Shown here: one piece after another, positions 5,995-51,364 of the stretch | Layout of the letters: each line of letters begins with the position of its first letter | Numbering within the stretch: the first letter of the stretch is position 1 | Source of the DNA: a phage | Assembly (NCBI GenBank): GCA_011835815.1 | Contig: GCA_011835815.1_3615.1 | Length of the DNA stretch: 64,000 nucleotides | Strand: one strand, 5' to 3' | Notes under the pieces: model-generated | What the model was told of the DNA's origin: nothing | Seen by the model: the letters and a program-made list of their open reading frames with translations, nothing else | Databases searched by the model: none | Program-made: the position numbers and the translations under genes

Positions 5995-6267
5995 ATGTCA
6001 GGCTGGATTAATCAAGAAGTCGAATCACGTTTTAATGCTATTTGGGATCTCATCGAAAAAGAAGACGGCACATCAAGCCCCTACCTCAACAATTTGGAAT
6101 TCCATTTTGTGGAAGCGATGAACGCAGAACATGATCACGAAGGTGGTGCGGACGAGTTCGCTAAAGGGTATGGCTTCAACAATGCCAACGAAATGATCGA
6201 GGCGGTTGTACTCCAGGCTGAGGAAGATTATCAATTAAAAACGCTTGAATTCTGCCGCCGTAAGTAA
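5995..6267 (+). CDS. hypothetical early protein
   Basis: 90-aa acidic ORF; AGAGAGGA SD; TTGACA-N17-TAACAT promoter upstream. Confidence 0.55.
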   Translation: MSGWINQEVESRFNAIWDLIEKEDGTSSPYLNNLEFHFVEAMNAEHDHEGGADEFAKGYGFNNANEMIEAVVLQAEEDYQLKTLEFCRRK

Positions 6268-6327
6268 TAAGATAATGACACGGGCCGGGAGGCCCACTAA
6301 TCAGAACCACACAAAGAGGTAAACATC

Positions 6328-6734: not shown

Positions 6735-7154
6735 ATGAACATTAAATCTAATAATCCGGCATATAGCTTTGATAACGCTTTTTGTCACGGTCCGGCGGCG
6801 AAAGGTTTTGAAATTGATGGTAAACTAATTATTGTCAATGTTGACGGGGAAGAGGTTGCAGTATATCCGGTGGCAGACGTAAAAAGCCGTTTGCAATGCC
6901 GCATGGATGTTACCGCCTATCAGCTTGATCCGGTCCGCATAGTTGCCCTGGTCCTGGAAGAAGAAATTAAAGCCATGCACCATAGCAACAGGTTTATTGG
7001 TGACGCACAGGATAATATGAAGGTATGCCGCCATAAAGTTAATGAAGTGCTTAAAGAATATGGCTTTAAAGATCTGATGATCAAACGTGAGGAAAAATTC
7101 CGCTACCGTAACGACCTGGCAAATCGAATCTATGAAATATACGAATCATTATAA
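6735..7154 (+). CDS. hypothetical early protein
   Basis: 139-aa ORF with AGAGG SD; promoter upstream, terminator downstream; last + strand gene before the gene desert. Confidence 0.55.
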   Translation: MNIKSNNPAYSFDNAFCHGPAAKGFEIDGKLIIVNVDGEEVAVYPVADVKSRLQCRMDVTAYQLDPVRIVALVLEEEIKAMHHSNRFIGDAQDNMKVCRHKVNEVLKEYGFKDLMIKREEKFRYRNDLANRIYEIYESL

Positions 7155-7172
7155 TTTCTTAACTAAACTATC

Positions 7173-7202
7173 AGGGGCTTTAAAAGGCCCCTTTCTTTTT
7201 GT
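7173..7202 (+). terminator. rho-independent terminator
   Basis: AGGGGCTTT-AA-AAGGCCCCT hairpin then T-run. Confidence 0.65.
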
Positions 7203-7810
7203 CTGTATTTCTCCTACCACAAACGGCCCAGCCTGGCAAGTGGAATAATTGACTAGCCATCAATCCCACACACTGTACAAACATACATGTAAAATAACTA
7301 TTGCATAATTTTTCATTGTGTGGTAGCAGGTCCATTTTTACCCGTTTTCTCTCTCAAAATTGCACGTAATGCCGCTATTGCACAAAATTTAACCTGATGC
7401 ACATCTTCAATATCTTGTCAACAACTAAAAATCTTTATAAGTCATACACTTACACACTCACAAAAGCGTGTTCTACGTGAAAAATCGAGTATAACTATAG
7501 CCGCCAGATCTCAGAATTTACGTACGCTCACCATTCTATAGTCTGCTAAGTATTTATTCCAACCATGGAATAACGGAATAGTCAATACCTGCATAAAATA
7601 ATTATTCGTGTAAACTGCATAACATAAATCAGCTTATGTGTCAACATTCTTGGTAAACAGTCCGAAATTGTAACGGTAAGTTATAATAAACAGAGAAATC
7701 TTTAGTCGTCTAATGTTTACTGTACATAACTATACTGACTGGAATCATTAGATGACTAAGAGAAAGATAAGAAATAATTAACAATACAATTATTTTATCT
7801 GTAACAATAA

Positions 7811-7984
7811 GGCAACTATGCAAACGAATGGCATGGCGCGACGGAGTCGCGACATAATATAAAAGCAGTAACCATCACCCCCGTGATAGTTTGTCTGCAA
7901 TCTATTAATCAGATCATAGTTGCCTTGTATTCAGTTAATCATGACATAATAAGCAAGGCAACTATAGATCTGCTAATAGTTGCC
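7811..7984. repeat. four copies of GGCAACTAT in alternating orientation, including a perfect 12-bp inverted repeat
   Basis: Copies near 7811(+), 7916(-), 7957(+), 7976(-); ATAGTTGCCTTG...CAAGGCAACTAT arms; also a 19-bp direct repeat TGCAAACGAATG(G/T)CATGGC at about 7819 and 8047. Confidence 0.6.
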
Positions 7985-8075
7985 CTGCTTTTATATTATG
8001 TCATATATTATTAACTTGTTAATTGTTAACTTGCTAATTGTTTTCATGCAAACGAATGTCATGGCTTATCCTATC

Positions 8076-8147
8076 TGTGTAAACAGTTAAGGTGTAAACT
8101 ATCCAGGCGTAAACAGTCTATGCGGGAACAATCTATACGTGAACAGT
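8076..8147. repeat. three copies of GT(A/G)AACAGT at roughly 31-bp spacing
   Basis: GTAAACAGT near 8076 and 8108, GTGAACAGT near 8139; a related GTAAACTA between. Confidence 0.45.
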
Positions 8148-8759
8148 GAAACATGAAATAATAACAGTCGTTATTGTGTCGAAAGTGTATAAGGTGTCAG
8201 ACAAGTTTTTCTCCTCTTTGTCAAGTGCTGCATGAAAAATTTACAATCTGGTATGGTAGCATTTTTGCGGCCCGGTTTACATTCAGTTGTGTATGTATAA
8301 CCCTTGTTGTGTGGGCGTTTAGACGTCTGGACGGTCAGAAGTCCGCAGGTTAATATCTAATCTATTGGCTGCTAACTATATCCCACACAAATAGTAAGAA
8401 ATATAATTGTTATGTGCGTAAACGGTAACTCATGTTATCAATCCCTGTATGTATCGCCAGTGGTGCGCATAATAGGTATTATGTTAAATTGCCAGTAATG
8501 ATAACTATTCTCACAATGATAGGTATTCTCATTCACTCCCACAAGATAGGTTGCAAATGTTGTGCCACTGTGTGAACGGCCTCACCTATTAATTTGCCTC
8601 ACTGCCTCGATATTTGAGAATTGTTATAAGAATGAGAAGTATTCCCATTTCGTCCGCCTGGCAGCACTCCAGTCGCTACCGGCTCCTGACAGGGAGGCAC
8701 TCCTGTTGGTCAGGTCAAAATCGGGGTAGAACTGGGCCTGTTCAGATATTTCTGGCTGA

Positions 8760-9947
8760 CTCTTCAGGTCTGTGTGGGAAAAGCCAACCTCTCCGGCGGC
8801 GGGGAGGGGGTCAATTAAAAAATTTACGGGGTATATGAAGCGCTCTTCAGGTAAGGCATGTACTATGGGATGAGACCCTCTTCAGGCAATGATATTTGTG
8901 GGTGTGATATTTGCTGGAAAGCCAGATATGACGGGACTCCCGGCGGGGCAGGGGTAGTACAGACAGGGAAAATATGGGGATGTAGTTGGGTGAATTGATC
9001 GGGCAGGTAGAGTATGGAATATGTTACAAGTATGTTAAATATGGAGGGTGAATATCTGCAGGATTTGTGTGTAAAATCAAAGACTTAAGTAGTGTTGTGG
9101 TATTTTCTATAAATAATTCAAGTTTAATAGGTAATATTTGTCTCTATCCACTTTGTGTGGTAAACAAATTCAAATGAGATTGGTTTACAAGTGTATACAT
9201 AATATACAAATTAAAGATACAAGAAACCCCCCTCCCCCTTCGGCTACCATTCACCTTTTCCTCTGACTGGTACTTAAACACTTATTCAGACTCTTCAGGT
9301 TATCACCCATATACCATATGGCAGTGACTGGTGTCCTCCGGCCCCTCTTTCGTCACCCGTCCGCTTCGCCATGCTAATGCCATAGCTAATGGTTCGGTTG
9401 TTCACCCTGTTCACTCAGGTGTATCTCTATACCCCTTCAAACCGAAGAGAACAGAAAACCCGAATTACTCGGTAAAAGAAAAGAGAAGAACTTAATTTTA
9501 TCAGGATAGGCAAGAATGTCAAGGCATGACTGCTCACTAAACAAGCAAACAGTCATGTGTGGGAGGTAAGTGATTGTGGTGGTAGGAAATTTAGTTGAAA
9601 GATGTGTTATAGGTGCTTCCAGCACTTTAGCCTGGCAGCTAATTGTGTGTCAGTCCAGCGGTTCATCCTCTACTTCACTGAAATCAATGTTCATGGTCTC
9701 TTCCCAACCATCGATCTCAGCACAAGAGTGGAGTTCTTTAGGGTTTACTCCCAAAGCCTCAGCAACAGAGTCTATATTTAACACCCCTGGCAGGTATGAT
9801 TCATCGAATTCAAGGTAAATCAGGCCACGAGTGTTGTCAGCTCCACCAAATATCTCTATCTTCATAAAATCTCCTCTGGGAATGAAAGTGTGAACAGGGT
9901 TTTATACGTTCTAATGCACAGGAATTATACACGTTTGCCTCTTCAGG
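8760..9947. repeat. dispersed 9-mer CTCTTCAGG (5 copies)
   Basis: Exact copies near 8760, 8843, 8877, 9291 and 9939, all same orientation, all in non-coding DNA. Confidence 0.5.
9650..9865 (-). CDS. small highly acidic protein
   Basis: 71 aa, rich in D/E; most promoter-distal gene of the - strand block. Confidence 0.5.
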   Translation of the reverse strand: MKIEIFGGADNTRGLIYLEFDESYLPGVLNIDSVAEALGVNPKELHSCAEIDGWEETMNIDFSEVEDEPLD

Positions 9948-9986: not shown

Positions 9987-10199
9987 TCATAGTCTACCAC
10001 CTCTGAACTCTTCGTGCTCAGGCATAATAGAGAACCAGATATCTACGATGTCCTCCCACGTCAGGTCATCAGCCTCAGGATCTGTCTGGGACGAAGATGA
10101 AGAGTCCTCAGAATCTAAGTTTTCCTCTTTAACTGGCTCATCCAAGGGACATATGGCCACTCCTTCGGATGTCTCTTCAGATGCATGTGTGTTGATCAT
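9987..10199 (-). CDS. small highly acidic, Ser-rich protein
   Basis: 70 aa, D/E/S-rich; stop of upstream small ORF overlaps its start. Confidence 0.5.
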   Translation of the reverse strand: MINTHASEETSEGVAICPLDEPVKEENLDSEDSSSSSQTDPEADDLTWEDIVDIWFSIMPEHEEFRGGRL

Positions 10200-10297
10200 G
10201 TTCCACCCGTGAGTATTCCGGCAACAGCCGCTATGGAAGTAATGATCATCAGGATCACCACTAAAACTTCAGACAATGTTCTCATTGTGTATTCCAT
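10196..10297 (-). CDS. small hydrophobic peptide (33 aa)
   Basis: Hand-translated MEYTMRTLSEVLVVILMIITSIAAVAGILTGGT; GGAGA SD; ATGA overlap with downstream gene. Confidence 0.35.
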   Translation of the reverse strand: MEYTMRTLSEVLVVILMIITSIAAVAGILTGGT

Positions 10298-10559
10298 ATT
10301 CTCCAAACTGTGTGTGGATACTATCACGGTAGCGGTAATGTGTCAACAGCAACGCCGCGAGGGTTTGGTTAAAATCCGAGCGTATGGTGATTTGGGTCAA
10401 AACGGACGTGCGTTCTCGCTACGCTCGAAAAAGAGAGTTGTTTGTAGGAAGCTCTTAAACGCTCTGTAAGGAGATTATCTGTCCAAGGTATGCAATCGTG
10501 CACCAGATAAAGAAAAGGACGCCACAGAGCGTCCTAGGTGTCTTAAATTTGATATTTTG

Positions 10560-10871
10560 CTATACCCATGATGGCTTATCAAGGTTGGAGTAGCTGAAAG
10601 GTGTCAAAAGGTGACTGTCAAAATCTCTCAAACTATCCAGATCTTTTTCCTCGTCCTGACACCATCTGTGCCTGCATTTATTGTTGTAGTGCATAGAATG
10701 CATGGCGTTCTGCAACTTAACAGGCACAAGTGATTCCGGAGTAGATAGTATTGTTGGGTATGCCAGAACCACCTCAAACAGTGGAAACACATCGAAACTA
10801 AAATCTACCTCTGCAGAGGTTGATGGCATGTAGGAGTATTTAGCCGTCTTTGTAGACATAATCCACCTCAC
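10560..10871 (-). CDS. hypothetical protein
   Basis: 103-aa ORF, translationally coupled to upstream gene. Confidence 0.5.
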   Translation of the reverse strand: MRWIMSTKTAKYSYMPSTSAEVDFSFDVFPLFEVVLAYPTILSTPESLVPVKLQNAMHSMHYNNKCRHRWCQDEEKDLDSLRDFDSHLLTPFSYSNLDKPSWV

Positions 10872-11194
10872 ACAGGTTTGATAATACCTTCACCGAATAA
10901 CTCTTCATATCTAATCTTATCCGGATCCCACTCCTGGATAATTTCGAAGACAATATCCAACCCTGGGATAATCACTTCTCCAGTGTCAAGTTTGGCAAGA
11001 ACAAAACCAGAAGGCTGAATGGTTTCCCAGTTGCGCCGATTGGAATAGAAGACCTCGAAAATATCGCCGACCTTTATCTGTTGATCAAGATGTTCAAGAT
11101 TCTCTTTCATATAGACGCAGCGGATTTTTCGTGCAGGCCATAGACCACCTGCATCACGTTCATTTAGCTCTTTTACAGTAATCGGTATACCCAT
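10868..11194 (-). CDS. hypothetical protein
   Basis: 108-aa ORF. Confidence 0.5.
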   Translation of the reverse strand: MGIPITVKELNERDAGGLWPARKIRCVYMKENLEHLDQQIKVGDIFEVFYSNRRNWETIQPSGFVLAKLDTGEVIIPGLDIVFEIIQEWDPDKIRYEELFGEGIIKPV

Positions 11195-11212
11195 CTCAAA
11201 TCTCCTTCATAG

Positions 11213-11244
11213 ATAGTAAAAAGAGGGGCCCAAGCCCCCCTCTT
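11213..11244 (-). terminator. rho-independent terminator (- strand)
   Basis: AAAGAGGGGCC-CAAG-CCCCCCTCTTT hairpin just downstream of the 11250-11555 gene. Confidence 0.55.
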
Positions 11245-11249
11245 TGTCA

Positions 11250-11555
11250 TTATTCTACAGAGCGTTTGAACAGAATGTCTGCCTCGGACATGTGCTCAAC
11301 CTCTTCTTCGATTTTAGCTCGACGTTTTTCAGCCTCATATCGAATATCGAACTCGGTAGCCACCAGAGATTTGATGAATTTAGGAGAATACAGATGATCC
11401 TGCTTCTCAACAAGAATGATATCCTTGATGGCATCTTTCAGATCTTTAATCTGAAGTTGGAGTTCCACCAGTTCTTCGATTGTTTTGCGAAGGCGATCAC
11501 GCTCTGCAGTGTCAGAAGGAAGAGAGGTGAACAGTTCAACTTTAGATTTAGCCAT
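11250..11555 (-). CDS. hypothetical coiled-coil protein
   Basis: 101 aa, charged heptad-like sequence. Confidence 0.5.
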   Translation of the reverse strand: MAKSKVELFTSLPSDTAERDRLRKTIEELVELQLQIKDLKDAIKDIILVEKQDHLYSPKFIKSLVATEFDIRYEAEKRRAKIEEEVEHMSEADILFKRSVE

Positions 11556-11583
11556 AGTAAGAGTCTCCTTATGTTGTTTTAAA

Positions 11584-11835
11584 TTAACGTTCTACAAAAA
11601 TACCGTTCAGTTCAATAACCAGGAATTTCTGGTCTTCACTATCGTCTCGTGCCAGCACCTCACAGACGTATCGGTCATCCCCATCATCATCGCAGTCAAA
11701 TACAAGACTGAGGACTTTATCATGATAAACCTTCGCCACTACCGCCTCGTAAATATTGCCGATTGTGAATCCAAGATAATCTCCGATGCATTTGACAACA
11801 ACATGGTCGCCAGCATTCAAGTCAATCTTCGTCAT
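11584..11835 (-). CDS. hypothetical protein
   Basis: Start moved to in-frame ATG at 11835 with AAGGAG SD (track start 11901); acidic DDDGDD stretch. Confidence 0.5.
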   Translation of the reverse strand: MTKIDLNAGDHVVVKCIGDYLGFTIGNIYEAVVAKVYHDKVLSLVFDCDDDGDDRYVCEVLARDDSEDQKFLVIELNGIFVER

Positions 11836-11990
11836 TACTGCGCTCCTTGGGTAATAATACTGTATGTAAAACTTTAACCAGAGATGTGAATAACGCCCCA
11901 AAACACACCGATAGCGCTAAAACAGACAAGGCCATCATTAAAGCTTCAGTAAAATCTGTCATTCCTCACCTCTTGTTAGTCACTATACTA

Positions 11991-12254
11991 TCATTTATCC
12001 TTACCGTCAAGAACTTTTTTAAATCTTTCAGGGATATCTCCCGTTCTTAGATAGTTCATGACCTCACAAGGTTCCCACTTGAATTTCTTACAAAGCAGGG
12101 CGGCTGATATTGTCTCATTGCGAAAAGAAAGGATATTAATATCCCATTCTGAGAACCCCAACTTCCGAAGGGTAGCTACAGAAATCCTCACCGCAACCCA
12201 GCAGCAAAAACATGCAACAAACGCCACTGCTATAACCCACATCAGGATGTTCAT
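11991..12254 (-). CDS. small membrane-anchored protein
   Basis: 87 aa with N-terminal hydrophobic helix. Confidence 0.45.
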   Translation of the reverse strand: MNILMWVIAVAFVACFCCWVAVRISVATLRKLGFSEWDINILSFRNETISAALLCKKFKWEPCEVMNYLRTGDIPERFKKVLDGKDK

Positions 12255-12343
12255 ACAAGCACCTCACTGAAATACAAGACACAGTGTTAAGGTTACTGAC
12301 CAGCAAATAATTAACAGTGCCGTTGCAACCTTGGCAAGATTTA

Positions 12344-12631
12344 TCATAGTGCCTCTAAGATTTCATATCCTTCGGGTCGGAATACAAGCCACTCCGTGGC
12401 TCCGTTTGGTCGATACGCTTTATACAGAACAACCTGATCTCGGCACATGCACATAGCTACATAGTTTTCATCCACACCTGCAGCCTGCATTGCAGCTTCT
12501 TCTCCGGCAACTGCTTTGCTTACAACCTCCTTGGTAGGCAGGTGTGCGATCAGCTCGTCACCATCATTAATTCCAAAATGGCTGAGCTCTCCATTGGTAT
12601 CTTTAATCTTAATCTTAACCAGATCTTTCAT
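12344..12631 (-). CDS. hypothetical protein (paralog array)
   Basis: 95-aa ORF; stop/start overlap with neighbour. Confidence 0.5.
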   Translation of the reverse strand: MKDLVKIKIKDTNGELSHFGINDGDELIAHLPTKEVVSKAVAGEEAAMQAAGVDENYVAMCMCRDQVVLYKAYRPNGATEWLVFRPEGYEILEAL

Positions 12632-12960
12632 TAGTCTTCCTCCAGGTTCAAAGGCCCTAAGATTTCATATGCCAGATTAGAAGTTACCAGAGGGTCTTCT
12701 GCATCTTTAGTATTATACCACCCGTGAATAACCAGAGTCCCACTCTGTTTCATATCTAACTGGAACTGTTCTGCAGTTTCCTCATCCATCTCTAAGATCT
12801 CCATAAGGTACTTGATGTTAGGAAGGTATGCAGCTGTTACAGTTCCCTCTACCAGACCTTCGGGCCAACCTACATCCGGATGACAAGTAGGAACCAGGTT
12901 GGTCAGCTTAATGGTGTACGCTTTTTCTGCACGAGCCTTCAGTAACGGGTCAATCTTCAT
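12631..12960 (-). CDS. hypothetical protein (paralog array)
   Basis: 109-aa acidic ORF, coupled. Confidence 0.5.
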   Translation of the reverse strand: MKIDPLLKARAEKAYTIKLTNLVPTCHPDVGWPEGLVEGTVTAAYLPNIKYLMEILEMDEETAEQFQLDMKQSGTLVIHGWYNTKDAEDPLVTSNLAYEILGPLNLEED

Positions 12961-13310
12961 TATTCGTCCTCCTCTTCGGTGCCTGCTTCCAGTAATAAGT
13001 TAAGAATATCTTCTGCACAAGGCTCATAGAACTCTTGGCCTTCATTATCGATGATTTTGTAGTCATCTCCACGAATAATCAGAGGATCACTCTCAAAATT
13101 ATCGAGACCTTTAACAACGACAACACGATCGATTGCCATCATTGTAAGAACTTTATCGACATCTTCCTCTGCTACACCATACTGCAGCAGAATGTCTTTG
13201 GTAGGAGGAACAGCATCCACCACAACGCCGTTACCAAAACCTTCTGGAAGTTTAGCTAAAATATCTTCCGGAACCACATTCACATCAAAACCGGTAATTT
13301 CTACTTTCAT
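12960..13310 (-). CDS. hypothetical protein (paralog array, VVVVKGLD motif)
   Basis: 116 aa; starts MKVEITG like other array members; acidic C-terminus. Confidence 0.5.
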   Translation of the reverse strand: MKVEITGFDVNVVPEDILAKLPEGFGNGVVVDAVPPTKDILLQYGVAEEDVDKVLTMMAIDRVVVVKGLDNFESDPLIIRGDDYKIIDNEGQEFYEPCAEDILNLLLEAGTEEEDE

Positions 13311-13571
13311 TTACAGCACCTCTTCGTCAACTACTTCATAAAAATGGCCTGGGATTGCAATAGCGTTCTCACCTTCACCTACAAACACAGTTCCGTCAAG
13401 AATCAACATCATAAGAATTTCTGTAATATCCTCTTCCGGAACGTTGCCAAAACCTTTAATCAGCTCGTAGGTTGGAATATTTACCTCTAAGATGTCACCA
13501 TCTTTAGAACGGAAATCAACACCGTCCTGAATCTCTGCCGTTTCAAGGTTTTTCAATTTAATCTTCATCAA
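13311..13571 (-). CDS. hypothetical protein (paralog array)
   Basis: 86 aa; MKIKL start as in 14735-15004. Confidence 0.5.
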   Translation of the reverse strand: MMKIKLKNLETAEIQDGVDFRSKDGDILEVNIPTYELIKGFGNVPEEDITEILMMLILDGTVFVGEGENAIAIPGHFYEVVDEEVL

Positions 13572-13647
13572 TCGGTCCCCTGTCTTATTAAGATGAAGGT
13601 ATTATTTCACACAGGGTTGGCGTTGTCAACACCTGTGTGCAAGAAAA

Positions 13648-14043
13648 TTACTGAAACAGTGCGGATAAATTACCTTCTGGTGGGAACTTATCTGCCAAAA
13701 ACGGTGTTAGCACAGTAGCCTTCTGAAGATCTGGGGTCCACTCGTTGTTCAGAACATCCCAGTAGTACGCAATGTTGCTGTGTGGGTGCCGCATTACGAA
13801 CTTTTTCCCTTCGTAGTCATCTGAAACCTCTACAGAAGAAATAACAACAGAATCTTCAAGGGTTTCTTCATAGAAAGATCCACCTTCAAATTTCCAACGA
13901 GATGCAAGAGCCCCTGCCTTGAACGCTGCAGATAACGGACTGTCGGCAAGAACATACATTTCTTGCACTCTGTCGCTGCGATCTTTGCTTCTTACGTTGT
14001 ATACAGTATCTGAGCTATACTCAACACGGTATAGGCTTACCAT
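13648..14043 (-). CDS. hypothetical protein, paralog family B
   Basis: 131 aa; shares HPxS..YW.....WTP....T.L block with 15855-16253. Confidence 0.55.
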   Translation of the reverse strand: MVSLYRVEYSSDTVYNVRSKDRSDRVQEMYVLADSPLSAAFKAGALASRWKFEGGSFYEETLEDSVVISSVEVSDDYEGKKFVMRHPHSNIAYYWDVLNNEWTPDLQKATVLTPFLADKFPPEGNLSALFQ

Positions 14044-14402
14044 TACCGCACCTCCTCAATAACTTCCACATCTGAACCTACCACAAATGCAAAAGGACAG
14101 GTTTCATGAAAGATATCCGGATCGCCGCCAAGCTTGCTAACAATTTCTCCACCACTAATAAACACAAGCTCACCGATATTCATCAGATTGCTGAAATAGT
14201 ACCCATAATGATTAAAGAATGCAGCAGGGTCAGGTAGACTAGTAGCCTCAAGCACTACATCGGTTGAGGTTACTTTCTTATCATAACCTCTCGCCTTTTG
14301 AGATGCAAGATCTGCAGAATCCTCAGGCGACCGGAGATGCACAGGAATTGTTTCACCAATAAAGCGTACTTTCATATTATCACCCAACAACCATAGCTTC
14401 AA
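14043..14402 (-). CDS. hypothetical protein (paralog array)
   Basis: 119 aa; hydrophobic strand plus glycine motif LVFISGGEIV. Confidence 0.5.
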   Translation of the reverse strand: MKLWLLGDNMKVRFIGETIPVHLRSPEDSADLASQKARGYDKKVTSTDVVLEATSLPDPAAFFNHYGYYFSNLMNIGELVFISGGEIVSKLGGDPDIFHETCPFAFVVGSDVEVIEEVR

Positions 14403-14643
14403 AAGGAGTCATGAACGAATAAACGGCATCATCATCTGCTTCAGGGAATGCTCCCAAAGACTTCATATCTGAGCCCTTGACAAATACAAGGTTTTGATCA
14501 AAGGCTTCTTGGGGGTCAATCCGATACATATTTCGTAAAATATCGCTTACCTCCTCATCAAGAGGTGAGTATGCTGTGCACGTTTTTCCGATCAAGCTTT
14601 GAGAATCAGGGTATCCACCTGAAGTTTTAAAATAAACAATCAT
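14380..14643 (-). CDS. hypothetical protein, paralog family A
   Basis: 87 aa; NLVFVKGSDMKSLGA motif shared with 16266, 16510 and 20064 genes. Confidence 0.5.
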   Translation of the reverse strand: MIVYFKTSGGYPDSQSLIGKTCTAYSPLDEEVSDILRNMYRIDPQEAFDQNLVFVKGSDMKSLGAFPEADDDAVYSFMTPFEAMVVG

Positions 14644-14734
14644 ATAGTATCACCTCTGGTAAGAGATTGGGACTCCTTTCCCACAAATAATTACAAATCT
14701 TCCTTAGCGAGGAAGTATGCTAATCCAAGCAGGA

Positions 14735-15004
14735 TTATTCCTCTACAATCTCATACACATCAGGAGTTACAATCAACTCTTCTCCGTTACCCGGTGCAAC
14801 AAACACCACCAAACCTTCAGGTGTGTGCTTTTTAGCCATCTCGATAACATCTTCTCGCAGAGCTGGCTCCATCAGATCAAAACCTTCACCTAGGGCATCA
14901 CGAACCACCTTCATATAGTCCACTGGTTGTGCTTCAACAATCATGCCTTCAACCAGTCCACAATTTTTGTCTGCCAGCTCAGTTTGGAATAATTTAATTT
15001 TCAT
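14735..15004 (-). CDS. hypothetical protein (paralog array)
   Basis: 89 aa; MKIKLFQTELAD start similar to 13311-13571. Confidence 0.5.
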   Translation of the reverse strand: MKIKLFQTELADKNCGLVEGMIVEAQPVDYMKVVRDALGEGFDLMEPALREDVIEMAKKHTPEGLVVFVAPGNGEELIVTPDVYEIVEE

Positions 15005-15141
15005 TTAGAGGTCTCCTCAATTATTTGATATTAATAGCCGTAACCTAACACATTAACTACAACTGCGATTGCAAACATAATTTCAAAGCATGCAATCTCT
15101 ACATTTGGGACTAATTTCTTAATCACACCCATTGTAGCGCC

Positions 15142-15462
15142 TCATTCTCCAAAGTCAATCTTTACTTTGCCTTTCCCCTTACCTTTCTTTCCACCACATT
15201 TAGCCAGCTGACGTGCTGCAACATCTACCATACGGTCAGTTGCCTCGTAAGCATCACTGCCTTTAGCCTTGGCAATAACTTCTTTTCCAGAATTGTCAAA
15301 AATGAACGCCATAACTTCCTGGTGATCATTTTCAACTTTTACACTCACACGTGCATAGTTAACAGAGGGATGTAAACGCTCCAGCTTGGACATTTTGCGG
15401 GAAATAAAAGATACCATACCTTCTGTGATTTCTACATTGTTGCCAGTGATTTCAATTTGCAT
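15142..15462 (-). CDS. hpf: ribosome hibernation promoting factor (HPF/RaiA family) homolog
   Basis: 106 aa; MQIEITGNNVEITEGM...RVSVKVE...AKAKGSDAYEATDRMVDVAARQL lines up along its length with E. coli HPF as I recall it (MQLNITGNNVEITEALREF...YVVLKVEK...AEGQDMYAAIDGLIDKLARQL); extra Gly/Lys-rich C-terminal tail. Confidence 0.8.
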   Translation of the reverse strand: MQIEITGNNVEITEGMVSFISRKMSKLERLHPSVNYARVSVKVENDHQEVMAFIFDNSGKEVIAKAKGSDAYEATDRMVDVAARQLAKCGGKKGKGKGKVKIDFGE

Positions 15463-15546
15463 AACGTGTTCCTTTTAAGGAAGAGGGAATAACTATCTCT
15501 CTTTGAAAACAATGATACTAAATCTGAAGCGTTGTGTCAACAGTTT

Positions 15547-15837
15547 TTACAGCTTGTTGTCGATAGTTTTTAAAATATCCACAGCAAGATCTGCCATTTT
15601 TCGAACATACTCTGCAAACTCAACAGGATCCTTGATCAAAGAATTCACAGGGTCGTACCCTAGAGCGTTTAAAATGGCTGCAGCATCTACAACCTTCTCA
15701 TCATTTGCGAAGATCTCTCCGTCAAACTTGTAGGTCCATTTTGAGTCAACCTTAGCAGAGCAGGGTTTGTCCATGCTTGTTACACCATCGTCTTTAAACT
15801 CTCCTGCGTTATCAATATTTAGAATTAAATCCATCAT
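15547..15837 (-). CDS. hypothetical protein
   Basis: 96-aa acidic ORF. Confidence 0.5.
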   Translation of the reverse strand: MMDLILNIDNAGEFKDDGVTSMDKPCSAKVDSKWTYKFDGEIFANDEKVVDAAAILNALGYDPVNSLIKDPVEFAEYVRKMADLAVDILKTIDNKL

Positions 15838-15854
15838 GGTGACACCTCACTGTT

Positions 15855-16253
15855 TCAGTTTAGCTTTTCTTCAACAACCCCATAACTTGGGGCAGAGTCA
15901 AGAGCTTTCTGGTTTAAAAGTGGCGTAGCAGAATCTGCAAACGGTGTCCAAGTTTTTGTTCTGGCATTCCAGTAATGCTTCACTCTGGAATCTGGATGCA
16001 CTATAACAAAAACTTTTTCACTTGTCAACACATTAATTTCTTCTACACCCTTGCTGATAATTTCTCCGTCATAGCCCCCAGTCTGGTATCCTTCGTACCA
16101 GGTTCTTGCATAGGCATAGCCAGCCTGCCAGCATGCAGCCTCCTCCGAGGTGGAGACTACGTAGAAGTCTTTCTCAAATTCTGGAATACGCCCTTGCTTT
16201 ACGCTCCAAGCCCCGCGAATTTTCATTGTAACTTTAAACAGTTTATTTTTCAC
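15855..16253 (-). CDS. hypothetical protein, paralog family B
   Basis: 132 aa; paralog of 13648-14043. Confidence 0.55.
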   Translation of the reverse strand: MKNKLFKVTMKIRGAWSVKQGRIPEFEKDFYVVSTSEEAACWQAGYAYARTWYEGYQTGGYDGEIISKGVEEINVLTSEKVFVIVHPDSRVKHYWNARTKTWTPFADSATPLLNQKALDSAPSYGVVEEKLN

Positions 16254-16265
16254 AACGGTTACCCA

Positions 16266-16520
16266 TCACAGCTCTACAATATCTGCATCTGACCCTACCC
16301 CAAAGGCATAGTAGGACTCTTCCCCGAAATAATATTCAGGTGCACCAGCGGTGATCAGGTCTGATCCCAAGATAAACACCACGTTGTGGCCTACATAACT
16401 GTGATGTTGCCGCACAGGATCATCCCACGGCAACCCTTCAAAGTATACCGCAGGAACGACCTTTCCATTCAGGAAGGATTGTCCCAAGTAGACGTTAGAA
16501 TCAAGAATTTTAACCTTCAT
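16266..16520 (-). CDS. hypothetical protein, paralog family A
   Basis: 84 aa; MKVKILDS start and VVFILGSDLITAGA motif. Confidence 0.55.
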   Translation of the reverse strand: MKVKILDSNVYLGQSFLNGKVVPAVYFEGLPWDDPVRQHHSYVGHNVVFILGSDLITAGAPEYYFGEESYYAFGVGSDADIVEL

Positions 16521-16737
16521 GATCGTCCTCCACTACCTCTACATCCTCACCTAGGGCAAAGTTATAGGTCCACTGACTGTCAAAGCATTCCTGAGATGCA
16601 CCAGCGGCAATAAGATCTGCTCCTTTTATTTTTAAAAGGTCAGGGTAATCTTCGTTAGGGACAGCAGTAAACACTTTTCCTACTAAAGGCTCCTGACCAA
16701 TATAGAAGCTTGAATCTAAAACTTTAACTTTCATCAA
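16510..16737 (-). CDS. hypothetical protein, paralog family A
   Basis: 75 aa; MKVKVLDS start and KIKGADLIAAGA motif; tandem with 16266-16520. Confidence 0.55.
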   Translation of the reverse strand: MMKVKVLDSSFYIGQEPLVGKVFTAVPNEDYPDLLKIKGADLIAAGASQECFDSQWTYNFALGEDVEVVEDDHEG

Positions 16738-17021
16738 CGGTCTCCATCAGGTGGTTGTGGGACGTAAACACTGTTACGAATATCGTCAGCAGTGTAGTAA
16801 TAAGTGGTTCCAACCCTGTCTCGGGCTGCAATGTACTCTGCTATACCAATAAGTGCCATTGATTTGGTGGCGTATCTTCCCAACTCGTTAGCTCCCCAGT
16901 AGAATTTAGACCAGTAGGGAATAAGACCGAACAAATATACCTTTTGACGAACTTCCCAGTAAGTGCCTTTTCCGACAAGTTTAAACTCTACTTCACTACT
17001 GTTAATCTTTTTCATTATCAA
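16734..17021 (-). CDS. hypothetical protein
   Basis: 95-aa ORF, coupled. Confidence 0.5.
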   Translation of the reverse strand: MIMKKINSSEVEFKLVGKGTYWEVRQKVYLFGLIPYWSKFYWGANELGRYATKSMALIGIAEYIAARDRVGTTYYYTADDIRNSVYVPQPPDGDR

Positions 17022-17314
17022 TCTCCCTCTACCGTGGTCGGATTGTCAGTAAGAAATTGAGCATTGGCTGGAGGCACGCCTGACATTTTCCACACAACCA
17101 TAAGTTTGTAACCAGGCACTCTATTAAGTGCAGATCGAGTAGAGTTTGTGCACGTATACTTTCGCTTTCCAAACCCGTTCTCCATCATAATCCAGTACCC
17201 AGTATCTTTGTCACCAGGTATCGGTAGACCACCTTCATCAACCCACTGAATGGACCACGGCACGATGGCTACAGCTTTATATTTAAACTTTTTAAACCAC
17301 TCAAAAAGTTTCAT
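17018..17314 (-). CDS. hypothetical protein
   Basis: 98-aa ORF, coupled. Confidence 0.5.
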   Translation of the reverse strand: MKLFEWFKKFKYKAVAIVPWSIQWVDEGGLPIPGDKDTGYWIMMENGFGKRKYTCTNSTRSALNRVPGYKLMVVWKMSGVPPANAQFLTDNPTTVEGD

Positions 17315-17499
17315 AATTCAGCCTCGCTTGGCAACTCTTCTACCTTAACATGCCGAAAAGTGTTACCGTAATGGTTGATCCATGACATCAGCTCGCTTTC
17401 TTGCTCTTCCTCTGGGATGAACTCTCGAATGCTGACAAGTTTTAAGAAAACCCAATCACAATCTGCACCCATTCTACCAGACAGGCAATAGTGCTTCAT
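17311..17499 (-). CDS. hypothetical protein
   Basis: 62-aa ORF, coupled. Confidence 0.45.
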   Translation of the reverse strand: MKHYCLSGRMGADCDWVFLKLVSIREFIPEEEQESELMSWINHYGNTFRHVKVEELPSEAEL

Positions 17500-17517
17500 A
17501 AAACCCTCCTGCCTGGT

Positions 17518-17712
17518 TTAGAATATTGCTTCTTCCATTGCGCCTGAGAGCAACAAAGAGGTGATCTGGCTAACATTCATCTCAGACTCTACTTCCTCCC
17601 CTTTGAAAGGTTCGCGGCAGAATAGGACTGTTTCAGGACTTTTACTTCGAACAATATAATACAAATCATTCAATGTGTTGTAGTAATAAGTGTTAAAACG
17701 TAAGTTTTTCAT
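17518..17712 (-). CDS. hypothetical protein
   Basis: 64-aa ORF. Confidence 0.45.
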   Translation of the reverse strand: MKNLRFNTYYYNTLNDLYYIVRSKSPETVLFCREPFKGEEVESEMNVSQITSLLLSGAMEEAIF

Positions 17713-17996
17713 TTTCTAGTCCTCTTCTTAGATTTTTGGGGAGAAACGCTTTCTGCAATACGAGACAGACGTTCTTCTGAAGCCTTACCTACTCCAGGTT
17801 TTTTGAGTGGATTATCTTTATGACCACAATCCAACTGGATATTGGATACCTCTCCAACTTTGTAAGTCAATTCTAGCAAAAGGTTGTCGTCCTTGTCAAA
17901 TGTTTTTACGATAAATTTTTTATCGTTCTCCTGAACTTCATATCTGGTACCTGCAGTATACAGCATGGTGCCATCAGCATAGGATATCCAGATCAT
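17709..17996 (-). CDS. hypothetical protein
   Basis: 95-aa ORF with basic C-terminus. Confidence 0.5.
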   Translation of the reverse strand: MIWISYADGTMLYTAGTRYEVQENDKKFIVKTFDKDDNLLLELTYKVGEVSNIQLDCGHKDNPLKKPGVGKASEERLSRIAESVSPQKSKKRTRK

Positions 17997-18340
17997 TGAG
18001 CCTCCTTTTGCTGCAACAGCATTAACTCTTTGTTAGAGATCTTTACTGCTGTTTTTATTGTTCCATCTTCACGAAACCACGACCAGAACTCTACAGTGTC
18101 ACCACTATCAAGTAAAGCATGCCCATGGTAAAAATCTTTGTCCTTAGACAGTTTCTCATCTATATCTGCATCAACACATTCGTGATCCATAGCATTTTGC
18201 CTGAACGCATCGGTTATGCCAATGCACGCCTTGCTCTCAAGACTGGTATATCCGATATCTTTTAATTCAGTTTCCCAAGTCCAGTACCCTATAAAAGCTA
18301 AAACAGCTACCCACAGTAATAACGTTTTAATCTTTGGCAT
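17993..18340 (-). CDS. membrane-anchored or secreted protein
   Basis: 115 aa; N-terminal hydrophobic segment LLLWVAVLAFIGYWTW. Confidence 0.5.
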   Translation of the reverse strand: MPKIKTLLLWVAVLAFIGYWTWETELKDIGYTSLESKACIGITDAFRQNAMDHECVDADIDEKLSKDKDFYHGHALLDSGDTVEFWSWFREDGTIKTAVKISNKELMLLQQKEAQ

Positions 18341-18402
18341 TCTCTCTACCTCTTTCTTAGTTTATTTCACTATGGCACATCCTTTGTGCCATATCTCAAC
18401 TA

Positions 18403-18873
18403 CTACTTAAATAGTAGTTCAAAATAGTGCAAAATTAACAGAAGTTGAACTACACCTAGTGCAACGGCGAGTATGTTAATCTTAGAATCGAAAAACTTCT
18501 TAACTTTTACTCTAAAAGGTTCCTTAATGTCCTTTACGATCCTATCTATAGATGACCTCATATCTCTGATTACCATCCTGAACATTAAAGACGGATGCTC
18601 CCCCATCTCTGTAACGGAATCGAAAACATACTCTCTTCGGTCATAAGGGCCGCCAGCTCTGCGTATTAACCTCTCCACAGAGACCTCGAACGTCACACCT
18701 GTAACGTAATCATCTATAACAAGTCGTGACGGGTCTTTACCTTTACTATCAAGAGGTATCAAAGTTATCTTTCCAGATTTTGTTAAAATTTCCCCTTTTT
18801 CAAGCAAGGTGTACCAATGCTCTCTGCCAAGACTGTTGAGGCACGTTTTTACATATTTAACAAACATCGTCAC
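18403..18873 (-). CDS. hypothetical protein
   Basis: 156 aa; C-terminal hydrophobic segment. Confidence 0.5.
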   Translation of the reverse strand: MTMFVKYVKTCLNSLGREHWYTLLEKGEILTKSGKITLIPLDSKGKDPSRLVIDDYVTGVTFEVSVERLIRRAGGPYDRREYVFDSVTEMGEHPSLMFRMVIRDMRSSIDRIVKDIKEPFRVKVKKFFDSKINILAVALGVVQLLLILHYFELLFK

Positions 18874-19055
18874 CCCTCATCGCACGTCTGATATAACCAC
18901 TCTATAAAATCTTGATACCATTCGCCCTCTGAGCGCTCCGTAGGCCAATAATCTTCACCCTCTCGTGCATTAAAATCTGAGTATTCAACTTTCCACTCCT
19001 TTACCAGCTCGTGGAGAAGGTTTTCAGCCTGCTCTAAAGATTTATTTTTTACCAT
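18870..19055 (-). CDS. hypothetical small acidic protein
   Basis: Start moved to ATG at 19055 with AAGGAG SD (track uses TTG at 19073); Trp/Glu-rich. Confidence 0.45.
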   Translation of the reverse strand: MVKNKSLEQAENLLHELVKEWKVEYSDFNAREGEDYWPTERSEGEWYQDFIEWLYQTCDEG

Positions 19056-19274
19056 TGCTGTCTCCTTTTTCAAGATAGTTATACATCAGAACTGCACCAC
19101 CTAAGATGGCTACCAGTAACAATATCCCAGATAGCATCTCAATAAACATGGCTTGAAACACTGGAAGGTCTCCCTAAATTAACGCACCATTTTAAATACA
19201 TGCTCTTTTCCCATAAAGGTGCCTGGCTAAGATCTGCGTAGAACGCAATCTCTTTAAGAACAGTATAGATAGTT

Positions 19275-19502
19275 TTAGGTGCGGTCTCCATCCCTACTCT
19301 CCTTCCTGATATTCTTGTAGTAATCAACTAGGCACATTATTACGATGAAGATAACAACAGGCCAAAAAGGTGCAGCAGTGATGATGGTGATAAAATCATC
19401 AAACTTCACCCTTCGTCTGGACACGATGCATACACCTGTCAAGAATACCGCTGTTATAACGGACATTACCAGGTAACCTATTAGCACAACATTTATACTC
19501 AT
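19275..19502 (-). CDS. small membrane protein
   Basis: Start moved to in-frame ATG at 19502 with AAGGGGAGG SD; two hydrophobic helices. Confidence 0.45.
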   Translation of the reverse strand: MSINVVLIGYLVMSVITAVFLTGVCIVSRRRVKFDDFITIITAAPFWPVVIFIVIMCLVDYYKNIRKESRDGDRT

Positions 19503-50424: not shown

Positions 50425-50499
50425 GCCCTGTTAGCTTAGTGGATAAAGCAGCGGCCTTCTAAGCCGTTGACACTGGTTCGAGTCCAGTACGGGGTGCCA
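50425..50499 (+). tRNA. tRNA-Arg (anticodon UCU)
   Basis: Hand-folded cloverleaf: acceptor GCCCTGT/ACGGGGT, anticodon loop CTTCTAA, T-loop GGTTCGAGTCC, encoded CCA. Confidence 0.75.
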
Positions 50500-50629
50500 A
50501 GTTCTTTTTAATGTAGCTTACTTTAGCAGAGTAAATCTTCGGCAAGTGGCGGTAACCACTTTACCGATACCTCATAGTTAGTGGTGAGAACACTAGCTAT
50601 TTTAAAAAGAATTTAAATATTAGTATTTA

Positions 50630-50717
50630 GGTGAGTTAATTCCGTAGGGGTAGCGGGGCAGACTGTAAATCTGTTATCATTGCGATTCGGGTGGTTCGAC
50701 TCCATCACTCACCACCA
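50630..50717 (+). tRNA. tRNA-Tyr (anticodon GUA), class II
   Basis: Acceptor GGTGAGT/ACTCACC, anticodon arm GCAGA-CTGTAAA-TCTGT, long variable arm, T-loop GGTTCGACTCC, CCA; D-arm register uncertain. Confidence 0.65.
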
Positions 50718-50821
50718 AATTTATATTTTTAAATGCATAAATCATACAGATAATGGCATTGATATTTATCGTCGTTTATACTAGTCACTAACTGCTCGAA
50801 AATCAGTGTCATTATCAGTAT

Positions 50822-50912
50822 AATTTATAAAGGAGGGTAGGGAGCAATGGTGCTCAAGCGGTCTTGAAAACCGCCCCGTTGAGGATGACTCGATGATGGT
50901 TCGATTCCATTA
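50822..50912 (+). tRNA. tRNA-Ser (anticodon UGA), class II
   Basis: Acceptor GGAGGGT/ACTCTCC, anticodon arm GCGGT-CTTGAAA-ACCGC, long variable arm, T-loop GGTTCGATTCC, CCA. Confidence 0.65.
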
Positions 50913-51020
50913 CTCTCCGCCACATTGTTGACCTTGTAATTAAGCGAAAGCCGGAAGCAGAACCGGATTATCAAATGTTACAGTCGTCATCGCCGACTAG
51001 CAACATGGTCAACATACTGA

Positions 51021-51119
51021 GCTAGGTAAGCCCTTTGGCAAGGGCGAGGATTTTTAATCCTGAAAATAGACGAGGTAGTCGTTGAATACATAGGTGGTTC
51101 GATTCCATCGCCTAGCACC
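51021..51119 (+). tRNA. atypical tRNA-like gene (about 97 nt), anticodon possibly UUU (Lys)
   Basis: Perfect acceptor GCTAGGT/GCCTAGC, D-arm GCCC-TTTGGCAA-GGGC, anticodon-like hairpin GAGGA-TTTTTAA-TCCTG, canonical T-arm; but about 30 nt inserted between anticodon stem and T-stem. Confidence 0.4.
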
Positions 51120-51124
51120 TTTTT

Positions 51125-51200
51125 GCTGATGTAGCACAATCGGTAGTGCAATTGATTTGTAATCAATAGGTTGTAGGTTCAAGTCCTGCCATCAGCACCA
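51125..51200 (+). tRNA. tRNA-Thr (anticodon UGU)
   Basis: Acceptor GCTGATG/CATCAGC, D-stem GCAC/GTGC, anticodon arm ATTGA-TTTGTAA-TCAAT, T-loop GGTTCAAGTCC, CCA. Confidence 0.75.
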
Positions 51201-51201
51201 A

Positions 51202-51276
51202 GGCCCTGTAGCTGGAAGGTTCAAGCAAGCGACTCATAATCGCCAGACGGTGGTTCAATTCCACCCAGGGCCACCA
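51202..51276 (+). tRNA. tRNA-Met or Ile2 (anticodon CAU)
   Basis: Acceptor GGCCCTG/CAGGGCC, anticodon loop CTCATAA, T-loop GGTTCAATTCC, CCA; not initiator-like. Confidence 0.7.
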
Positions 51277-51287
51277 AATAGTAAATA

Positions 51288-51364
51288 CTCCGCGTAGCTC
51301 AGCTTGGTAGAGCGCCTGATTTGGGATCAGGAGGTCGAGTGTTCGAATCACTCCGTGGAGACCA
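51288..51364 (+). tRNA. tRNA-Pro (anticodon UGG)
   Basis: Acceptor CTCCGCG/CGTGGAG, D-stem GCTC/GAGC, anticodon arm CCTGA-TTTGGGA-TCAGG, T-loop GTTCGAATC, CCA. Confidence 0.75.

Follow-up and report, generated by a model that had tools for sequence, protein, structure and literature searches.

A ribosome hibernation factor homolog in an rV5-like coliphage: selective maintenance, a conserved promoter, and a mosaic of ribosome-contact residues

The gene, its setting, and its annotation history

Which protein is encoded by the short reading frame at 15142-15462 of this phage DNA, and what could a homolog of the bacterial hibernation promoting factor (HPF) do during infection? The window (the whole stretch of 64,000 nucleotides analyzed here) belongs to an rV5-like coliphage of the genus Vequintavirus. 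Over the 3-kb segment around the HPF gene, identity is 99.9% to phages navn, SophiaRose, and A51.2, and 97% to rV5. The placement of the gene inside a small-gene array, claimed by an earlier sequence-only reading of this DNA, was borne out; the strand, which that reading did not give, is minus. It is one of 31 small co-directional genes that were scanned and the sole member of the array with any Pfam family; none of the other 30 genes (0/30) matched a Pfam family that could serve as a clue to function. The following features were assigned at the locus:

15142-15462, minus strand: complete CDS of the phage HPF/YfiA-family protein (ATG-to-stop ORF of 106 codons plus stop, from the ORF list)
15193-15462, minus strand: core S30AE domain, residues 1-90 (AF2 model and Foldseek)
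15142-15192, minus strand: Lys/Gly-rich C-terminal tail, residues 91-106 (GKKGKGKGKVKIDFGE), plus the stop codon (pLDDT below 50, charge, and indel variants)
15470-15474, minus strand: Shine-Dalgarno-like AAGGA, 7 nt 5' of the ATG of the HPF gene (read from the sequence)
15512-15540, minus strand: sigma70-type promoter, TTGACA-17 nt-TATCAT, with 11/12 consensus matches (promoter scan; the equivalent of P144 in rV5)

The translation begins with MQIEITGNNVEITEGM and ends with KCGGKKGKGKGKVKIDFGE; a longer C-terminal excerpt reads AKCGGKKGKGKGKVKIDFGE. A ribosome-binding site is annotated at the place equivalent to AAGGA in the Murica record. The ortholog in rV5 is ORF144 (ABI79209; 97% protein identity), which was annotated as a "sigma 54 modulation factor" with a predicted sigma70 promoter (P144) upstream. 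The name is explained by a legacy label of the S30AE family, as given in the Pfam description. Other GenBank records name the gene hpf, RaiA, or ribosome hibernation factor, and several mislabel it "ATP-dependent protease La type I."

A second "sigma 54 modulation factor" is labeled in navn, SophiaRose, and nom at 14735-15004 (minus strand). This candidate was rejected: the product is an acidic protein of 89 aa without a Pfam match. The label goes back to APCEc02, in which it was shifted by one gene: _082 carries the name, and the HPF gene proper, _083, is listed as hypothetical. Other records copied the error. A separate labeling problem was observed among the 18 GenBank records (MG0656xx) of "Campylobacter phages" with Campylobacter jejuni as the stated host, which match positions 14000-17000 of the window, those listed being 98-99.9% identical. 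This suggests mislabeled hosts or contaminating coliphages.

Novelty of the gene, as implied by the sequence-only reading, is not supported: more than 100 GenBank records annotate it, and it appeared in print as a viral HPF in 2019-2020. Its annotation goes back to the deposition of the rV5 genome, and the rV5 protein was counted among virus-encoded ribosomal proteins, as a viral HPF, by Mizuno et al. (2019; PMC6375957). It was noted again as hpf in rV5 phages by Mathieu et al. (2020; PMC6969025). In the literature on phage HPFs nothing functional was found after these two papers. Mizuno et al. (2019) expressed rV5 HPF in exponential-phase E. coli. Peptides were detected in the crude extract, but zero rV5 HPF peptides were found in high-salt-washed 70S/100S fractions; the level of 100S was unchanged, with no discernible effect on these particles in the expressing cells. 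The authors judged their own result inconclusive, and blamed growth phase, lost binding, or stringent washes. Added here are a test for selection, a divergent syntenic ortholog, a conserved promoter, a mosaic of contact residues, and a comparison of C-terminal tails.

Several other features of the window were recorded. The small-gene array (9987-19502, minus strand) encodes mostly acidic proteins, with net charges of -3 to -21. It includes two sets of paralogs, 13648-14043 with 15855-16253 (31% identity, E 2e-9) and 16266-16520 with 16510-16737 (40%, E 2e-14), and both sets show weak similarity to 14043-14402. Six clustered tRNA genes were found at 50425-51364 (plus strand); they include an odd ARAGORN call of 99 nt with a 4-base anticodon at 51021-51119 (plus strand), which is probably the tRNA-Tyr reported for rV5 (Kropinski et al., 2013). 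Few or no genes are annotated in navn for the stretch at about 7130-9650, which lies between two divergently oriented small-gene arrays; a short repeat_region is annotated at about 8479-8514. It matches the "non-coding" block 104013-106618 of rV5 (Kropinski et al., 2013).

Family membership and predicted fold

Two checks of family membership had been named in the sequence-only reading, a profile search and a structure prediction, and both were in favor of the assignment. For ribosome binding, a third condition named there, the published experiment on the near-identical rV5 protein (Mizuno et al., 2019) is the counterpart. The profile search was significant. The Pfam family PF02482 (Ribosomal_S30AE) matched residues 3-89 of the window protein with 56.7 bits (E 4e-15; gathering cutoff 23.7), and TIGR00741 (HPF/YfiA family) matched with 56.8 bits (cutoff 40.9). 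The best sequence matches in the PDB were the E. coli HPF chains 2rql and 6h4n (E 4e-15 to 2e-14, HMMER); the HMMER alignment to these chains also confirmed the N-terminus of E. coli HPF (MQLNITGNNVEITEAL) given in the sequence-only reading. The reading further claimed that the protein matches HPF/RaiA along all of its 106 aa. The homology was confirmed; its extent was overstated, as it covers residues 1-90 only. The added Gly/Lys-rich tail that it described is indeed present (residues 91-106).

The top NCBIfam match was NF007780, the gammaproteobacterial short HPF equivalog, with a score of 65.2 bits that lies below its cutoff of 125. The RaiA/YfiA equivalog (NF007654) scored 22.8 bits against a cutoff of 158. 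Short HPFs are about 95 aa long with the C-terminus KLKQH; the phage protein has 106 aa and a tail, GGKKGKGKGKVKIDFGE, without a terminal His.

In the AF2 model residues 1-90 have a pLDDT of about 90, and residues 91-106, with a pLDDT below 50, are predicted to be disordered. The predicted elements are beta1 (2-8), alpha1 (14-30), beta2 (34-43), beta3 (48-56), beta4 (61-68), and alpha2 (71-90), i.e., the HPF fold. A Foldseek search of the PDB returned HPF/YfiA/pY structures as the first 37 matches. The top match was V. cholerae HPF (4hei_A; TM 0.83/0.95, rmsd 0.9 A), and ribosome-bound E. coli HPF (6h4n_x) superimposed with an rmsd of 1.0 A. The input alignment combined the window protein with its phage relatives and 25 Enterobacterales HPFs, and the fold match is partly guided by the bacterial HPFs it contained.

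Based on profile, fold, and selection evidence (the last is given below), the assignment of the protein as a phage-encoded HPF/RaiA homolog is fully supported. The gene is derived from a gammaproteobacterial short HPF.

Distribution, selection, and expression signals

The HPF gene was found by tblastn in 119 phage records, all of them rV5-like, and the flanking 3-kb DNA matched 121 records; HPF is therefore essentially a core gene of the genus. Twenty-two phage records share at least 99% identity with the window protein, and those that were checked (navn-type H31-H39, Murica) have the 106-aa-type allele. A word-indexed homolog search with the window protein returned nothing beyond the phage clade. 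An exhaustive HMMER scan of 1.84 billion cluster representatives gave one other cluster below E 1e-10 (P0004), a divergent-lineage ortholog about 64-65% identical to the window protein. The best cellular match in the same scan was an enterobacterial HPF (44% identity, E 6e-10). Among Enterobacterales HPFs, identity to E. coli HPF is 75-100%, but these proteins share only 36-41% with the phage protein, and the phage clade has therefore either diverged long ago or evolved fast.

The divergent ortholog occupies the syntenic position in the small-gene array, on contigs of about 125-137 kb. Among the contigs of this sister lineage that were compared (L003-L006, about 44-137 kb), each carries the HPF ortholog at 6001-6312. 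No close relative of the sister lineage was found among sequenced phages, the best match having 32% coverage at about 80% identity. One copy of the sister lineage was observed as a 136.8-kb contig within an E. coli isolate assembly (GCA_012894635.1). The neighbor genes in this lineage show 27-88% protein identity to their window counterparts. For HPF the value is 64% between lineages, compared with 40-60% for the immediate neighbors, so HPF is at least equally conserved.

Between the window and rV5 the HPF gene has nine synonymous and two nonsynonymous differences (omega 0.055). Between the window and the divergent lineage pS is 0.81 (saturated) and pN is 0.24. These codon comparisons point to strong purifying selection. 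We conclude that the gene is real, expressed, and selectively maintained. An indel polymorphism was detected at codons 8-9 (15438-15443, minus strand), in the beta1-alpha1 loop. The allele GNNVEITE, as in E. coli HPF, is that of the window and other navn-type phages; rV5, most of its relatives, and the divergent lineage have GN-VEITE. The indel column is occupied in 99% of family members.

An alignment of the upstream regions revealed that the extended -35 element (AAACTGTTGACAC) is invariant in both phage lineages, whereas the remaining intergenic DNA has diverged. A -10-like hexamer is present at the identical 17-nt spacing in the divergent lineage, and the arrangement is alike in L003. Early transcription by the host polymerase would be expected from these elements, the timing being read from the promoter consensus only. 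The extended -35 motif is related to AAACTGTTGACA, for which 26 sites with at most two mismatches were counted in the window (9.5 +/- 2.9 expected). The sites include 5906, 15535, 47590, and 49314, and most are oriented with the local genes. As judged from the motif, this is consistent with a family of host-type phage promoters; 33 host-type promoters have been described across rV5 (Kropinski et al., 2013).

A regulatory hairpin in the 5' UTR (promoter to RBS) was considered and rejected: the folding energy is about that of shuffled sequences (z -0.3 to -0.7), and the hairpin is absent in the divergent lineage. No structured RNA was found near the HPF gene, with zero Rfam matches at E up to 1 in 14500-16500.

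Ribosome contacts, the C-terminal tail, and possible functions

If the protein acts on ribosomes, the residues by which HPFs bind the 30S subunit would be of most interest. The window protein was set against 137 diverse representatives of the family and against contact lists from the literature, which were mapped via the HMMER alignment. Joint mutation of K27, R30, K84, and R87 abolishes ribosome binding by S. aureus HPF (Basu and Yap, 2016). In E. coli HPF, R33 and K93 contact the E-site tRNA, and H95 stacks on G693 (Beckert, 2018). A 2025 preprint on Gram-negative hibernating ribosomes adds that K26 and Q29 touch phosphates near m3U1498, that T53 and H62 contact m2G966, that H55 and E60 contact the C-terminus of uS9, and that the basic residues of alpha2 are K80, R83 (m4C1402), K87, K89, and K91. 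The fate of these contacts in the phage proteins is as follows:

Kept in both phage lineages: K23, K26, R29, R84, K88
Kept in the rV5 clade only: E61, K92
Replaced in both lineages (E. coli residue, then window/divergent lineage): R33 by S/T, T53 by F/R, H55 by F/F, K80 by V/T, K89 by G/S
Without an equivalent in the phage proteins: H95 of E. coli HPF

R84 corresponds to E. coli R83, the essential Arg that contacts m4C1402, and R29, which is Q in E. coli HPF, is R or K in 78% of the family. Three of the four binding residues defined in S. aureus are kept (K26, R29, and R84), the fourth being V81; so are three of the five alpha2 basic residues and six of nine family-wide basic columns (3/9 lost). 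Of the published ribosome contacts, roughly half have been replaced overall.

Identity to E. coli HPF is 42% over 90 residues and is unevenly distributed. Beta1 and its loop are 85% identical, and the helices, beta2, and beta4 are 35-50% identical. Beta3 is only 11% identical (1/9) to E. coli HPF, yet 67% conserved between the phage lineages, and is therefore newly constrained. The pattern reads as a conservation mosaic in which the h44-side grip appears to be retained, and the strand facing the head and uS9 appears to have been rebuilt and then held constant.

With its Lys/Gly tail, predicted to be disordered, the C-terminus falls between those of HPF and RaiA. The stretch after the shared RQLxK motif counts 18 residues in the window protein, compared with 16 for the divergent lineage, 8 for E. 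coli HPF, and 26 for RaiA (the RaiA sequence used was checked to be identical to PDB 1N3G). Residues 88-106 have a net charge of +5, raising the pI of the whole protein, which is 9.0 compared with 6.5 for E. coli HPF. In both deep lineages the tail ends in a K-hydrophobic-D-aromatic motif (KIDF, KWDY). The tail DNA (15142-15192, minus strand) is a purine-rich repeat, GGTGGAAAGAAAGGTAAGGGGAAAGGCAAAG. Tail variants include a 1-nt deletion in Murica (99 aa), a 6-nt in-frame deletion in YN3, and a frameshift in APCEc02 that recurs in an independent assembly (P0003). The proximal basic segment GGKKGKGK (GRKKGKG in APCEc02) is kept in all of them. As judged from these variants, the repeat is a likely slippage hotspot or a site of recurrent sequencing error. 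No homology to the RaiA tail was detectable. In RaiA, an extension of 18 residues has been reported to head along the mRNA channel into the RMF site and to antagonize 100S formation; by length alone, the phage tail could act in a similar way.

The reading that we prefer, with a probability of roughly 45%, is that the protein is expressed early and, much like RaiA, occupies the 30S decoding channel with weak binding. The host RNA polymerase would transcribe the gene early from its own sigma70 promoter. The protein would probably dock in the decoding channel via beta1 and the h44-side basic residues of both helices. Binding of the core is likely to be weaker and salt-sensitive, because beta3 has been rebuilt and the terminal His and several lysines of alpha2 have been lost. 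The flexible Lys-rich tail would replace the short HPF C-terminus and probably follow the mRNA path toward the RMF site. Idle ribosomes might then be held as reversibly parked 70S monomers without 100S dimers being driven, a more RaiA-like than HPF-like role, and the decoding center and the 3' region of 16S rRNA would be shielded from host hibernation factors or nucleases. This explanation agrees with the contacts that were kept, with the tail, with the unchanged 100S level, and with the loss of the protein in high-salt washes; the unchanged 100S in cells expressing rV5 HPF (Mizuno et al., 2019) in particular fits a non-dimerizing role. Counting against it are the negative ribosome association of rV5 HPF, the replaced contacts, the poor match of beta3 to E. 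coli HPF, the three lost basic columns, the NF007780 score, and a low-complexity tail that varies between isolates (two variants are frameshifted) and has no detectable RaiA homology.

A more specific proposal goes further, and we consider it doubtful. Here the protein would be not a classical hibernation factor but a phage-adapted variant, combining an HPF-type h44-side grip, a rebuilt surface toward the 30S head and uS9, and a RaiA-like basic tail. Early in infection, idle ribosomes would be capped transiently, and dimerization by host RMF/HPF or ribosome-directed nucleases and toxins would thereby be blocked; alternatively, the rebuilt surface might recognize a new partner.

The main rival, which we regard as rather unlikely, is that the HPF fold has been neo-functionalized. 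Ribosome binding would have been lost, and the beta-sheet face and the basic tail would serve another RNA, a host protein, or a small nucleotide. The published rV5 HPF ribosome-association test (Mizuno et al., 2019) was negative, about half of the defined contacts are replaced, beta3 has its own conservation between phage lineages, and the pI has shifted from 6.5 to 9.0, all as this rival would have it; a precedent exists in the phage dsRBD/HPF-like fold repurposed as the Acb4 sponge. However, the residues most closely tied to 16S rRNA contact (K26, R29, R84, and K88) and the beta1 loop have been kept despite saturated synonymous sites, and the negative experiment involved stringent salt washes and exponential-phase cells, its authors calling the result inconclusive.

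Classical short-HPF activity is improbable. In this case the phage protein would act with host RMF to convert 70S ribosomes to 100S dimers, so that host ribosomes would be shut down or stored. The closest cellular relatives are enterobacterial short HPFs, with NF007780 as the top NCBIfam family and E. coli HPF as the top PDB match; however, the score of 65 is far under the equivalog cutoff of 125, 100S ribosomes were not discernibly affected by rV5 HPF expression, and K80, K89, and the G693-stacking C-terminal His95 are missing. The longer tail also argues against it, as in RaiA, whose extension antagonizes RMF.

We give an equally low probability to the anti-hibernation decoy suggested by Mizuno et al. 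(2019), who proposed that the phage protein competes with host HPF/RaiA; translation would thereby be kept running for the phage. A weakened core interface could ease displacement, and the promoter suggests early expression. Against this, whatever sits in the HPF site also keeps out mRNA and the A/P-site tRNAs, and simple competition therefore frees no ribosomes. The decoy overlaps with the preferred reading of a RaiA-like occupant and differs from it mainly in the net effect on translation.

The remaining readings are highly improbable: a functionless host-derived passenger gene is opposed by strong purifying selection and near-universal presence in the genus, a true sigma54 modulator by the fact that the historical "sigma 54 modulation factor" annotation on which it draws is a legacy S30AE label, and an Acb4-type nucleotide sponge, in spite of the reported structural resemblance of Acb4 to V. 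cholerae HPF (4HEI), by its different topology and the lack of any Acb4 chain among the sequence or fold matches.

Phage-encoded ribosome-associated proteins form a small but real class, and the residue mosaic supplies concrete mutants and conditions for deciding on function. The genus Vequintavirus is widely used for typing and biocontrol of E. coli O157, and its near-universal core gene would make a reasonable test system.

Among known systems, the Acb4 anti-CBASS sponge of phage SPO1 (PDB 9E4W) is also a small phage protein, with a monomer reportedly like the V. cholerae HPF and dsRBD folds. It differs in being an obligate tetramer of alpha1-3/beta1-3/alpha4-5 topology with cyclic-dinucleotide pockets, and has no sequence similarity to the window protein; the sponge reading was rejected on topology, with zero Acb4 chains in the sequence matches (E up to 1) or the top 50 fold matches. 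Cronobacter phage GAP32 and phrog_8990 likewise represent phage-encoded S30AE-domain proteins from large myovirus genomes. These were acquired separately: the rV5 family makes up a PHROG of its own (12469, E 1e-69) with only a weak match to phrog_8990 (1e-7), and GAP32 groups away from the gammaproteobacterial clade in the tree of Mizuno et al. (2019). E. coli RaiA/YfiA (protein Y; PDB 1N3G, 4V8I) shares the fold, the expected binding site, and a flexible extension past alpha2. Its sequence similarity is much weaker, and its tail, which is longer and ends in an acidic stretch, is not homologous to that of the phage protein. E. coli short HPF (YhbH; PDB 2RQL, 6H4N) is alike in fold (rmsd 1.0 A) and in K23, K26, R83/R84, and K87/K88; the equivalents of R33, T53, H55, K80, K89, and H95 are replaced in the window protein, and 18 rather than 8 residues follow the shared motif. 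The closest system is rV5 ORF144 (ABI79209), which has the same genomic position, 97% protein identity, and the same upstream promoter, P144; the window allele differs from it by one extra Asn (GNNVEITE) and two substitutions (R22/H, V34/A).
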